From assembly GCF_030384885.1 (NCBI RefSeq), contig NZ_CP128613.1: a stretch of 64,000 bases of DNA; one strand, given 5' to 3'. Made by a program: the position numbers and the translations under genes. The first letter of the stretch is position 1, and the number at the start of each line of letters is the position of its first letter. The notes below the pieces were generated by a model, which was given only the letters and a program-made list of their open reading frames with translations, did no database searches and had not been told where the DNA came from. Positions 26,427 to 60,935 of the stretch are shown here, piece by piece. Source of the stretch: Escherichia coli. Lineage in GTDB: Bacteria > Pseudomonadota > Gammaproteobacteria > Enterobacterales > Enterobacteriaceae.

Positions 26427-26563
26427 CGTGTAATGGCTGCATGAAATAAACAATAAAATATAAATAACATTATCAGCCTGCTGACGGCTTGAAGAGAGTC
26501 ACAGTATCTTGTGCAACATTATTGGAAAGAGTGAGGGGCGAGGTAGCGAAGCGGAAAAATGTT

Positions 26564-26669
26564 AAAAAAAAGCCCATCGTGGGAGATGGGCAAAGACTAC
26601 ACACAGCAATTCGTTGTTTCACTCAGGGGATTTCCATGCTTATAAATCAATATGTTGATTTATAACCGT
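26564..26669 (-). ncRNA. rprA: RprA small regulatory RNA (RpoS translational activator)
   Basis: minus-strand sequence ACGGTTATAAATCAACATATTGATTTATAAGCATGGAAATCCCCTGAGTGAAACAACGAATTGCTGTGTGTAGTCTTTGCCCATCTCCCACGATGGGCTTTTTTTT matches RprA as I remember it, with terminal hairpin and U-tract; located in ydiL-ydiK intergenic region. Confidence 0.9.
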
Positions 26670-32259: not shown

Positions 32260-32360
32260 ACTATTCTTATCGCCCCTTCAAGAGCTAAGCCACTGTGAGT
32301 GCCGGAGATAAGCGCCGGATGGGGTAGAAACCCTTAAGCCTGTGATGCACAGACTTAAGG
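32260..32360 (+). ncRNA. rydB: Candidate RydB-like small RNA locus (boundaries approximate)
   Basis: ydiH-sufA intergenic region; 5' hairpin (gccgg-agataagc-gccgg) and terminator-like hairpin aaacccttaag-cctgtgatgcacaga-cttaagggttt followed by tcttatttct; RydB is known to map between ydiH and sufA, exact sequence not recalled. Confidence 0.45.
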
Positions 32361-50049: not shown

Positions 50050-50355
50050 TCAGGCGAGTTTTGCCTGATTGATTTGACTCAGTGGCTCATTGACATCGAA
50101 AACTTTGGCGACAACTTCCTCAACGCCGAGATTTTTCAGTCGGGCAGTATGTTTTTCCAGATAGGCAAGGGCGCTTTTTTCATCAGTGAAAAGGTAGATC
50201 CCACCGGCTTCGTGGTTCTTTTCACTTTCTGTCCATACCTTCCACAGAAAACCAGGTTCCTGATTAATCGACTCAGCAAGCGGTTTAAGCTGCTCAGCCA
50301 TTGCGTCGCCAAATGGGCCATTAAAAGCAAAATGAAGTTGTAACAAAGTTGCCAT
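50050..50355 (-). CDS. ydhR: Small Dabb/antibiotic-biosynthesis-monooxygenase-like protein
   Basis: 101-aa ORF; terminator hairpin downstream (aagggcg-gttag-cgccctt). Confidence 0.85.
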
Positions 50356-50462
50356 AGCGATTCTCCTTCTGATAACGCATACGAAGACAGTGTAAATCTT
50401 TTAACGTATTGGATACAGAGAAGAAACAGAGGGAAAAAGGAGAAGACCAGATTAAGAAAATC

Positions 50463-50539
50463 TGGTGCGTCCGAGTGGACTCGAACCACCGACCCCCACC
50501 ATGTCAAGGTGGTGCTCTAACCAACTGAGCTACGGACGC
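50463..50539 (-). tRNA. valW: tRNA-Val (anticodon GAC)
   Basis: minus strand GCGTCCGTAGCTCAGTTGGTTAGAGCACCACCTTGACATGGTGGGGGTCGGTGGTTCGAGTCCACTCGGACGCACCA: 77 nt, cloverleaf-compatible, encoded CCA; copy assignment valV vs valW inferred from gene order. Confidence 0.95.
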
Positions 50540-50543
50540 AGGA

Positions 50544-50620
50544 TGGTGCGTTCAATTGGACTCGAACCAACGACCCCCACCATGTCAAGGTGGTGCTCTA
50601 ACCAACTGAGCTATGAACGC
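50544..50620 (-). tRNA. valV: tRNA-Val (anticodon GAC)
   Basis: minus strand GCGTTCATAGCTCAGTTGGTTAGAGCACCACCTTGACATGGTGGGGGTCGTTGGTTCGAGTCCAATTGAACGCACCA: 77 nt, differs from its neighbour in acceptor and T stems; 4-nt spacer. Confidence 0.95.
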
Positions 50621-57257: not shown

Positions 57258-58190
57258 ATGTGGTCAGAATATTCACTCGAAGTTGTTGATGCGGTAGCGC
57301 GTAATGGTAGTTTTAGCGCTGCAGCCCAGGAGTTGCATCGCGTTCCTTCTGCGGTCAGCTATACCGTGCGTCAGCTGGAAGAGTGGCTGGCGGTGCCTCT
57401 GTTTGAACGACGTCACCGTGATGTGGAACTGACCGCTGCCGGAGCGTGGTTTCTCAAAGAAGGGCGCTCTGTTGTCAAAAAAATGCAGATCACTCGGCAG
57501 CAATGTCAGCAGATAGCGAACGGCTGGCGCGGTCAGTTAGCTATCGCAGTGGATAATATTGTCAGGCCAGAACGTACACGGCAGATGATCGTTGATTTTT
57601 ATCGCCATTTTGATGATGTCGAACTTCTTGTCTTTCAGGAAGTGTTCAACGGTGTCTGGGATGCGCTTTCCGACGGGCGCGTGGAACTGGCGATTGGCGC
57701 AACACGCGCGATTCCGGTAGGCGGTCGTTATGCCTTCCGGGATATGGGGATGCTAAGCTGGAGTTGCGTTGTTGCCAGCCACCACCCGCTGGCGTTGATG
57801 GATGGCCCGTTCAGCGATGATACGTTGCGCAACTGGCCGTCATTGGTGCGCGAAGACACCTCGCGAACGCTACCTAAACGTATTACCTGGTTGCTGGATA
57901 ACCAAAAAAGACTTGTCGTGCCTGACTGGGAATCATCGGCAACCTGTATCTCGGCAGGATTATGCATAGGGATGGTGCCAACACATTTCGCCAAACCGTG
58001 GCTTAATGAGGGGACGTGGGTAGCATTAGAACTGGAAAACCCCTTTCCGGATTCGGCATGTTGTCTGACATGGCAGCAAAATGATATGTCGCCTGCGTTA
58101 ACCTGGTTGCTTGAGTATCTCGGCGATAGTGAGACGCTGAATAAGGAGTGGCTGCGGGAGCCGGAAGAGACTCCCGCAACGGGTGATTAA
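57258..58190 (+). CDS. punR: LysR-family transcriptional regulator
   Basis: 310-aa ORF with N-terminal LysR HTH; divergent from ydhC (punC). Confidence 0.9.
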
Positions 58191-59212
58191 CGACGATAGT
58201 CTCGGAACGGGCCGTCAGCCACGGAGCGGCGTTCAATCAAGCGCGGATGCACTTCAATGGACTGCGGTTCTTCACGTTTGTTGACGATACGATCCAACAG
58301 CATGTTGAACGCTGTTTCACCCAGCGAATCTTTTGGCTGATGGATCGTGGTCAGCGCCGGCGTAAAATAGCGGGCGTTGCGCACGTTATCATAACCGATC
58401 AGCGAAACATCCTGCGGGACGCGCAGACCCATTTCATCAGCAGCACAAAGTGCGCCCATTGCCATGATATCGCCACCACAGAAGACGGCAGTAGGGCGAT
58501 GCGGCTGCGACAGTATTTGCTGCATGGCGCGATAACCGGATTCAGGTTCAAAGTCACCCTGTACAATCCAGCTTTCCGGCACCTTGATCATCGCTTCTTC
58601 CATCGCCTTCATAAAACCGGCAAGGCGGCCTGCGCCAGTGTTACGTTCCAGCGGGCCGGGGATAACGCCGATTTCGCGGTGACCGCGTTCAATCAGATAA
58701 CGCCCGGCCATGTAGCCGCCTTCGAACGCGTTATCAATGACCGCATCGGTGAAGTCAGCTTTTGCTTCACCCCAGTCCATTACCACCATTGGGATATGGC
58801 GATACTCTTCCAGCATCGTCAGCAACGGCTCTGGGTACTCAGAACACATCACCAGCAGACCATCGACGCGTTTTTGCGCCATCATCGACAGATAAGCCCG
58901 CTGTTTCTCAAGATTGTTCCACGCATTACCCAGAATCAGGGTGTAACCTTTCTGGAAGCAATTTTTTTCAACCGCTTCAATTATCTCGGCAAAATAGGCC
59001 GCTTCGCTGCTGGTCGCCAGCAAACCGATAGACTTGGTGTGGTTAACCTTCAGGCTACGCGCCACCGCGCTAGGGGAGTAGTGTAATTCTTTGATCGCTG
59101 CCCACACGGCGTTGCGCGTTTCTTCAGCGACGAAACGTGTTTTGTTGATTACGTGTGACACAGTTGTAGTGGAAACGTTTGCTCGTTTCGCTACATCTTT
59201 TATTGTTGCCAT
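58187..59212 (-). CDS. purR: Purine repressor (LacI family)
   Basis: 341-aa [68 protein letters not shown]... Confidence 0.97.
59171..59186 (-). promoter_or_regulatory. PUR-box-like operator inside the 5' end of purR coding region
   Basis: minus strand GAGCAAACGTTTCCAC, matching PurR-box core CAAACGTTT; lies in codons about 9-14 of purR. Confidence 0.6.
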
Positions 59213-59253
59213 TCCATTTCACTCCAGACCCTAACTTCAGCTCCTGCAAAATC

Positions 59254-59274
59254 GCAAGGTAAACGTTTGCCTTT
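59254..59274 (-). promoter_or_regulatory. PUR-box-like operator in purR leader
   Basis: minus strand AAGGCAAACGTTTACCTTGC, about 45-60 nt upstream of purR ATG. Confidence 0.6.
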
Positions 59275-59510
59275 ACACACCTTACGCACAACAAAAGTGT
59301 TGCGGTACGCCGGAAAAACGACACGGAGCGTCAGGAAGGGGTCAATGGCCAGTACGCAAATAGTGTAAGCGTGGAATTTTGGCCGATCTTGACGAAAAGG
59401 GGAAGTGGTAAAAACACTTATCATTATAAATGACGGGAGATTTTTTCATCACAGTGTGTAAAAATGCGTAATATCACTTTTTGTGTGGTAATAAAAAAGG
59501 AGAAAACTTG

Positions 59511-59600
59511 ATGAGCACCGACCTTAAATTTTCACTGGTAACAACGATTATCGTCCTCGGTTTGATCGTAGCCGTGGGTTTGACTGCCGCGCTGCACTGA
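59511..59600 (+). CDS. ynhF: 29-aa single-TM small membrane protein
   Basis: ATG preceded by AGGAG SD (aaaaaaggagaaaacttg ATG); encodes MSTDLKFSLVTTIIVLGLIVAVGLTAALH; below the size cut-off of the supplied ORF track. Confidence 0.75.
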   Translation: MSTDLKFSLVTTIIVLGLIVAVGLTAALH

Positions 59601-59765
59601 TTTCCTCTCGAGGGAGCGCGTTCTCCCTCGCATCTCCTTCCTGTTTGTTAGCAAAATGGCAAAAGTGTTTTCTCTTTTTGTTATTTTCATTTTTTTGTGA
59701 TTGCTGTCATGCTTTCGCCACTTTAATGAATATCGCGTAATGACGCGAAGAGGTGGAGATAAGGC

Positions 59766-60935
59766 ATGAAGATTAACTATCCGTTGCTGGCGCTGGCGAT
59801 TGGCGCGTTTGGTATCGGGACAACGGAGTTCTCGCCAATGGGCTTGTTGCCCGTCATTGCGCGCGGTGTGGATGTCTCGATTCCCGCTGCCGGAATGTTA
59901 ATCAGTGCCTATGCAGTTGGCGTAATGGTTGGCGCGCCGCTGATGACGCTTCTACTTTCTCATCGTGCCCGCCGCAGTGCGTTGATTTTCCTGATGGCAA
60001 TTTTCACGCTCGGCAACGTACTTTCCGCCATCGCGCCGGATTATATGACCCTGATGCTTTCACGCATTTTGACCAGCCTGAATCACGGAGCATTTTTTGG
60101 TTTGGGTTCAGTTGTGGCCGCAAGCGTGGTGCCAAAACATAAACAGGCCAGCGCAGTTGCCACTATGTTTATGGGGTTAACCCTGGCAAATATCGGTGGC
60201 GTTCCGGCAGCGACCTGGTTGGGCGAAACCATCGGCTGGCGGATGTCATTTCTGGCAACGGCGGGGCTGGGCGTGATTTCAATGGTAAGTCTGTTCTTCT
60301 CATTACCTAAAGGTGGAGCAGGGGCGCGACCTGAAGTGAAAAAAGAGCTGGCGGTATTAATGCGTCCGCAGGTGCTGTCTGCATTGCTGACGACGGTACT
60401 GGGGGCTGGTGCAATGTTTACCCTCTACACCTATATCTCTCCGGTACTGCAAAGCATTACCCACGCAACGCCGGTGTTCGTCACGGCAATGCTGGTGCTG
60501 ATTGGTGTCGGATTCTCTATCGGTAACTATCTCGGCGGCAAACTGGCAGATCGTTCAGTTAACGGCACGTTGAAAGGCTTTTTGTTGCTGCTGATGGTGA
60601 TTATGCTGGCAATCCCGTTCCTGGCCCGCAATGAGTTCGGCGCAGCTATTAGCATGGTGGTGTGGGGAGCTGCAACCTTTGCGGTCGTACCGCCGTTACA
60701 GATGCGCGTGATGCGTGTCGCCAGTGAAGCGCCTGGTCTGTCTTCATCAGTCAATATTGGTGCCTTTAATCTTGGAAATGCGCTGGGAGCAGCTGCTGGT
60801 GGTGCGGTAATTTCCGCTGGGCTGGGATACAGTTTTGTGCCGGTGATGGGGGCGATTGTCGCGGGACTGGCATTATTGCTGGTGTTTATGTCAGCCAGAA
60901 AACAACCTGAGGCAGTTTGCGTTGCCAACAGCTAA
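59766..60935 (+). CDS. ydhP: MFS transporter
   Basis: 389-aa hydrophobic ORF. Confidence 0.9.
   Translation: MKINYPLLALAIGAFGIGTTEFSPMGLLPVIARGVDVSIPAAGMLISAYAVGVMVGAPLMTLLLSHRARRSALIFLMAIFTLGNVLSAIAPDYMTLMLSRILTSLNHGAFFGLGSVVAASVVPKHKQASAVATMFMGLTLANIGGVPAATWLGETIGWRMSFLATAGLGVISMVSLFFSLPKGGAGARPEVKKELAVLMRPQVLSALLTTVLGAGAMFTLYTYISPVLQSITHATPVFVTAMLVLIGVGFSIGNYLGGKLADRSVNGTLKGFLLLLMVIMLAIPFLARNEFGAAISMVVWGAATFAVVPPLQMRVMRVASEAPGLSSSVNIGAFNLGNALGAAAGGAVISAGLGYSFVPVMGAIVAGLALLLVFMSARKQPEAVCVANS

Follow-up and report, generated by a model that had tools for sequence, protein, structure and literature searches.

The 29-codon frame between purR and ydhP of Escherichia coli encodes CydH (YnhF), the fourth subunit of cytochrome bd-I

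The purR-ydhP region and its short reading frame

The stretch of DNA analysed here, referred to as the window, comprises 64,000 nucleotides of one strand of an Escherichia coli genome (RefSeq assembly GCF_030384885.1, contig NZ_CP128613.1). Towards its 3' end, the genes purR and ydhP enclose a spacer of 553 nt (59213-59765), which carries a short reading frame, cydH (also named ynhF), together with a number of candidate and mapped control elements (Table 1). A preliminary description of this DNA, which was made from the sequence alone, had proposed an ATG behind an AGGAG motif, a frame of 29 amino acids and a short hairpin following it, and all three are confirmed by the window sequence; its placement of the frame between purR and ydhP is right as well, and merely the spacer length of 552 nt given there deviates, by a trivial off-by-one. 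The product consists of a single transmembrane helix with a maximal Kyte-Doolittle hydropathy of 2.53 over 19 residues.

Table 1 Coordinates of cydH, its neighbours and associated elements, given as positions in the window
Feature	Position	Strand	Remarks
purR	58187-59212	-	Divergent neighbour; genomic context, not a part of the oxidase
RF02081 (STnc550) match	59213-59603	+	Full-length Rfam match, model positions 1-388; 396.5 bits, threshold 48
PurR (and GalR) operator O1	59259-59273		GGTAAACGTTTGCCT; in the purR leader, about 240 nt upstream of the cydH ATG
Candidate extended -10 element	59457-59465	+	TGTAAAAAT (TGnAAAAAT); block TGTG-x-AAAAT nearly invariant across genera
Shine-Dalgarno sequence	59498-59502	+	AGGAG, 8 nt upstream of the cydH ATG
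cydH (ynhF)	59511-59600	+	ATG 59511-59513, 29 sense codons (MSTDLKFSLVTTIIVLGLIVAVGLTAALH), TGA 59598-59600
Stem-loop	59609-59630	+	CGAGGGAG-CGCGTT-CTCCCTCG; GC-rich, 8 bp, starts 9 nt past the stop codon
Dominant cydH 3' end	59634	+	Term-seq entry for ynhF, MG1655 1737422 (minus strand); 4 nt past the stem-loop
ydhP	59766-60935	+	Downstream of cydH on the same strand

The frame had been described as missed by the ORF track, and this absence is due to the length threshold: at a minimum of 20 amino acids, the ORF listing contains it as a 39-amino-acid ORF extended to an upstream TTG (59481-59600). Short frames are numerous in this region, with 79 ORFs of at least 20 amino acids overlapping the 4.5 kb around cydH, and frames of 20-50 amino acids in which an ATG follows AGGAG occur 4.8 ± 2.1 times in block-shuffled windows versus once, as cydH itself, in the real window. 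The AGGAG-ATG motif by itself is weak evidence that does not beat chance, and the frame is accepted as real because of the comparative and structural evidence and not because of the motif. On the opposite strand, a 52-amino-acid ORF with an ATG start (59532-59690) covers the 3' half of cydH, as well as the hairpin, in antisense orientation; it is probably a chance ORF, since conservation collapses past position 59600 and the substitution periodicity follows the cydH frame.

Identity of the peptide as CydH

The peptide MSTDLKFSLVTTIIVLGLIVAVGLTAALH is 100% identical, over 29 of 29 residues, to chain 6RKO_H of the PDB, and the same chain is present in seven further entries (eight in total), where it is annotated as CydH (YnhF); the name given by the depositors is 'Cytochrome bd-I ubiquinol oxidase CydH (Uncharacterized protein YnhF)'. 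In NCBIfam, the sole match of the peptide at E ≤ 1 is the equivalog model NF033411, 'cytochrome bd-I oxidase subunit CydH', which scores 50.2 bits against a cutoff of 30 and is covered completely (profile positions 1-29 of 29). A local Pfam-A scan gave no match for the peptide, which might reflect either a newer model or the filtering of short sequences; in precomputed annotations, PF28012 (YnhF) is assigned to the peptide and to all close homologues. The frame is annotated in E. coli by RefSeq as cydH, flanked by punR, purR, ydhP, sodB and mepH, and 5425 of the 5426 complete E. coli genomes contain the 553-nt spacer with an identity of at least 95%; this part of the window is therefore the E. 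coli purR-sodB region. The gene is presumably b4602 of E. coli K-12.

The peptide has the features by which the CydH family is recognised, i.e. a length of 29, rarely 30, residues, a single helix, the N-terminal motif M-x-T/D-D/N/E-L-K-F/M-S-L-x-T-T and the C-terminal motif A-A/V-L-H/N, and its gene is oriented divergently from purR and lies outside the cyd operon, as in the description for E. coli. We regard it as virtually certain that positions 59511-59600 are cydH (ynhF, cydY), which encodes the fourth, 29-residue subunit of the ubiquinol oxidase cytochrome bd-I. The gene is already known: the segment is the type member itself and does not differ from the gene that has been described. The name ynhF, the single-helix inner-membrane protein and the strong ribosome-binding site, all of which had been proposed from the sequence, are correct. 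The accompanying statement that the function is essentially unknown has been outdated since 2019, when cryo-electron microscopy and mass spectrometry established the protein as a subunit of bd-I, and the comparison with respiratory complexes that had been suggested as a check has in effect been carried out in published work, in which YnhF was resolved in cytochrome bd-I.

Conservation of the frame and selection acting on it

When one genome per species was scanned for peptide patterns, 103 loci were obtained, 80 of which were kept; they represent more than 15 genera, and all cydH loci recovered are from Enterobacteriaceae. In all 81 loci, the frame consists of an ATG, 29 codons and a stop codon at the same place, free of internal stops, and is preceded at constant spacing by AGGAG, which is replaced by GGGGG in Klebsiella and Raoultella. 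Beyond the stop codon, the same-frame translation diverges at once in the comparison of the 80 genomes. Within the frame, entropy at codon positions 1, 2 and 3 amounts to 0.39, 0.21 and 1.21, respectively. With the method of Nei and Gojobori, applied to all pairs, we obtained a pS of 0.62, a pN of 0.10 and a ratio of about 0.16, an estimate that is somewhat biased towards conservation as the loci were found via conserved peptide patterns; Jukes-Cantor correction gives an omega of about 0.08. Judged by these substitutions, cydH is under strong purifying selection. The period-3 substitution signal reaches up to 15.7 times the background in the cydH ORF and is otherwise seen only in purR; a search of the spacer by means of this signal revealed no second conserved ORF.

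At the protein level, 1.84 billion representative proteins were searched with a profile, which gave only 78 matches at E ≤ 0.001, and all family members that are complete and correctly called have 29 or 30 amino acids and share the N- and C-terminal motifs. CydH thus represents a genuine, small family whose length is tightly constrained. No significant bias of the variable residues towards one side of the helix was detected, the helical moment being 0.346 versus 0.247 ± 0.121 in shuffled sequences (p = 0.21), and the alignment therefore provides no independent support for a single binding face.

CydH as a subunit of cytochrome bd-I

Purified cytochrome bd-I of E. coli showed density for an unexpected fourth, single-helix subunit in cryo-electron microscopy, which was identified as YnhF by mass spectrometry and named CydY (PMC6853902). 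A second cryo-EM study deposited the structure 6RKO under the name CydH (review: PMC8951039). CydH docks in a cleft of CydA formed by TM1 and TM8/9, opposite to CydX, and shields heme b595 from the membrane (PMC6853902; PMC8951039; also seen in later structures). Its position corresponds to the site where oxygen enters the Geobacillus enzyme and to a menaquinone site of mycobacterial enzymes, and neither the bd-II oxidase of E. coli nor the mycobacterial bd oxidases contain CydH. The subunit is reported to retain its N-formyl-methionine; the sources on the protein include a top-down mass-spectrometry paper. YnhF was reported to be made at low oxygen, in work cited in PMC6853902, and the gene lies outside cydABX (PMC6853902). 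In agreement with the latter, no cydABX genes are present within the 64-kb window according to the syntenic annotation. The association with CydABX has been published for E. coli with the identical peptide. In a ribosome-profiling preprint (Weaver et al.), ynhF is not mentioned in the main text.

Taken together with the transcript described below, these structures give the following picture. Translation from a short and very abundant monocistronic cydH mRNA is driven by the strong ribosome-binding site, and the peptide inserts into the inner membrane as one helix, keeping its N-formyl-methionine. Docked on TM1 and TM8/9 of CydA, it would cover heme b595 from the lipid phase and close the wide oxygen-entry site that is used by the Geobacillus enzyme. 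In E. coli bd-I, oxygen probably reaches heme d by a narrower channel starting at CydB. In vivo, CydH may tune the access of oxygen or other ligands or stabilise the b595 site. Because neither a deletion phenotype of cydH nor kinetics with and without CydH were found in the accessible literature, the role in blocking access to b595 is a structural inference.

Small single-helix subunits are also known from other membrane complexes, such as KdpF with KdpABC and CcoQ and CcoM in cbb3 oxidases. Comparable by location are CydX, AppX and CydS, which likewise have one transmembrane helix and about 30-40 residues and sit on CydA of the same enzyme. CydX, however, has no sequence relationship to CydH (NCBIfam reports CydH only for the peptide), is a product of the cydABX operon, sits on TM1/5/6 and is required for assembly and activity, whereas CydH is encoded elsewhere, next to purR and ydhP, occupies the opposite side of CydA and forms a small family. 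An assignment of the peptide to the CydX/AppX family is thus at odds with both features that were considered, as no model of that family is matched and the gene lies outside the cydAB operon. The same principle, in which one helix with a length below 50 residues docks on a large membrane enzyme, is realised by AcrZ with AcrB and by KdpF, CcoQ and CcoM; these proteins are unrelated to CydH in sequence and have different partners. Among the published examples discussed here, CydX adjoins its partner genes, whereas cydH sits away from cydABX.

Neighbouring genes and a possible link to YdhP

The gene directly upstream of cydH is purR, in divergent orientation, in 81 of 81 loci, with a start-to-start distance of 288-308 nt; the arrangement also holds for L082, the most divergent of the members whose DNA was recovered. 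The downstream side is more variable. In 75 of the 81 loci, ydhP follows cydH on the same strand at a distance of about 165-180 nt. It is absent beside an intact cydH in four, where sodB comes directly next in convergent orientation (L031, which is Salmonella arizonae, as well as L004, L072 and L078, this group including Pluralibacter and Cedecea), and it was not detected in the remaining two, one of which ends just past cydH. In E. coli PCN061 (L084), an IS1A element (positions 828-1525 of the locus) has inserted between the two genes; cydH and its hairpin are intact and ydhP is displaced by about 0.78 kb.

These observations bear on the idea that CydH has another or an additional main partner, for example that it regulates the MFS transporter YdhP in the way AcrZ regulates AcrB. 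The frequent co-orientation of ydhP with cydH speaks for such a partnership, and in two-hybrid assays small proteins with a single helix may give promiscuous signals, CydH having scored positive with RNase E; that signal was, however, ascribed by its authors to an unspecific interaction of the transmembrane domain. Against a partnership with YdhP stand the intact cydH genes in S. arizonae, Pluralibacter, Cedecea and one other locus where ydhP is absent, the separation of the genes by IS1 in PCN061 and the dominant 3' end of the cydH transcript, which lies upstream of ydhP, and CydH is resolved stoichiometrically in the bd-I structures. We assign this reading a very low probability, and the link to YdhP that had been put forward in the preliminary description finds no support in the variable neighbourhood or in the separate transcript end.

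Upstream of ydhP, at about 59648-59667, the window contains a further conserved element, a palindrome of the form GCAAAA-N3-TTTTGC, which reads TTAGCAAAATGGCAAAAGTG in E. coli. In most loci, it is located 55-70 nt past the cydH stop codon and usually has ATTGTTA in front of it; it might serve ydhP, either as the binding site of a regulator or as a hairpin.

The cydH transcript and the purR-cydH spacer

Coordinates of published transcript data were converted with the relation MG = 1797056 - window position, which was derived from PurR/GalR operator coordinates (PMC5110547). In the Term-seq entries for this region (supplementary file 1 of Adams et al. 2021, PMC7815308), the 3' end listed in Table 1 is classified as 'primary' for ynhF with average reads of 655,382 and 662,064, the two counts, in order of earlier and later passage, probably representing LB OD 0.4 and LB OD 2.0; among these entries, the counts lie far above those of the neighbouring genes. 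Since this very abundant end is situated only 4 nt past the hairpin, cydH is expressed as a short, stable, monocistronic mRNA. The 5' end of the ynhF mRNA has been reported to be trimmed by RNase G.

The stem-loop of the window has a centroid energy of -13.6 kcal/mol, and its z score depends on the procedure, being -1.13 with a 65-nt window and dinucleotide shuffles versus -3.65 with a 45-nt window and mononucleotide shuffles. A hairpin after the stop codon occurs in nearly all of the 81 loci (median 9 pairs; mean z -3.49, with 86% of the loci below -2), and in a few distant genera a post-stop stem of quite different sequence is found. At least five T residues in the 10 nt following the hairpin are present in only 17% of the loci, and in a consensus promoter and terminator scan, the hairpin was not called as a terminator. 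RNAalifold, applied to the aligned 3' region, retains just an invariant 5-bp core (GGGAG/CTCCC) with almost no covariation, which is scarce because this core is conserved in sequence; support for the hairpin therefore comes from the folds of the individual sequences and from Term-seq. Presumably, the hairpin sets the 3' end of the cydH mRNA and makes it stable, whether by terminating transcription in a non-canonical way or by holding up 3' exonucleases.

On the 5' side, the candidate extended -10 element would place the start of cydH transcription near position 59472 and would thereby imply an mRNA length of about 160 nt. In the consensus promoter scan, neither this element nor any other plus-strand promoter for cydH was reported. 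An FNR box with up to two mismatches was not found upstream of cydH; the sole nearby match overlaps the cydH start codon and is at chance level, and the reported induction at low oxygen is therefore unexplained at the sequence level. Inspection by eye of the upstream region for ArcA, CRP and IHF sites likewise revealed nothing convincing.

The purR-cydH spacer is well conserved, with a majority-base identity of 0.72-0.93 per 20 nt, above that of third codon and synonymous positions. Invariant blocks are located at about 59337-59350 (GGGGTCAATGGCC), 59366-59406 and 59419-59446, and the block containing operator O1, whose coordinates were taken from Table 3 of PMC5110547, is invariant across genera as well. 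At both PurR operators (59169-59184 and 59259-59273), ChIP of GalR in E. coli yielded peaks as well (assigned to ynhF/purR), and in Salmonella, MarA and RamA ChIP peaks were reported for purR<>ynhF, with a weak motif inside the purR start that corresponds to window positions 59181-59195. The Term-seq entries for this region further contain two 'orphan' 3' ends on the minus strand in the purR leader, at 59280 and 59223 (MG1655 1737776 and 1737833). The former lies 7 nt before O1 and would fit an RNA polymerase stalled at bound PurR, i.e. autoregulation by a roadblock.

The constrained spacer and the hairpin might also encode a form of regulation that has not been described, which we consider unlikely. 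Three options come into view: cross-talk between the purine repressor region and the expression of an oxidase subunit; read-through into ydhP modulated by a ribosome that melts the hairpin when it ends at the cydH stop codon; and an additional action of the abundant transcript of about 160 nt as a base-pairing RNA.

The Rfam family STnc550

The Rfam family RF02081 (STnc550), typed as an enterobacterial small RNA, matches the same locus on the same strand as cydH over its full length. STnc550 was originally the designation of the whole purR/sodB intergenic region of Salmonella, for which 10 reads were obtained in an Hfq co-immunoprecipitation versus 6 in the control (1.7-fold) and for which the Northern blot was negative (Sittka et al. 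2008, Table S3). The probe used in this blot, GCGACAATCACGCCCAG, is complementary to codons inside cydH. The direct adjacency of cydH and sodB in the loci devoid of ydhP matches the label 'purR/sodB' used in Salmonella. The model itself is composed of the purR-cydH spacer and the cydH coding sequence: it starts at the base beside the purR start codon, its consensus spells the cydH codons without assigning them any pairing, the palindrome of the PurR operator accounts for one hairpin on its 5' side, and it ends 31 nt short of the mapped 3' end.

The transcript could accordingly be viewed as a regulatory or dual-function RNA in which the cydH frame is secondary, a view with which the full-length match at 396.5 bits and a short, extremely abundant transcript with a stable 3' hairpin would be in line. 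We judge it very improbable, as nothing beyond the abundance is in its favour. The Hfq enrichment and the Northern result of the original study do not back it, the features of the model listed above are those of an intergenic region with a coding sequence, and substitutions in the ORF track codon periodicity and not base pairing. A non-coding transcript with defined ends and conserved RNA structure is not what was encountered here for RF02081; the family is typed as a non-coding small RNA, yet contains a translated and structurally verified ORF, and its boundaries track the intergenic region and not the transcript. We take STnc550 to be the region of the cydH mRNA together with the DNA of a divergent promoter, and not a demonstrated non-coding RNA; the family looks mis-typed as a small RNA.

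In the remainder of the window, Rfam matches at gathering level were obtained for STnc540, RprA, rydB, two tRNA genes and HPnc0260; among the positions of the further matches are 1734-1892, 26562-26669, 32272-32332 and 50339-50620. The antisense family HPnc0260 overlaps one of the tRNA genes (50466-50539).

That the cydH frame is a chance ORF of an AT-rich spacer without a product, as the number of short frames around the site and of AGGAG-ATG frames in shuffled windows might suggest, is excluded by the identity with the PDB chain, the presence of the peptide in solved structures and mass spectra, and the conserved length of and purifying selection on the frame across genera.

Implications

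Cytochrome bd is also an antibiotic target, and the picture of CydH known from the published structures is left unchanged by the present results. What is added here are a reading frame of invariant length with a pN/pS of about 0.16, an invariant linkage to purR versus a variable linkage to ydhP, a conserved post-stop hairpin tied to a very abundant mapped 3' end, and the proposal that STnc550 be regarded as the cydH mRNA region. The gene is a genuine small gene of the kind that is hidden by length filters, and its product is a peptide of only 29 residues that is encoded far from the genes of its partners, yet is a fixed subunit of a respiratory enzyme.
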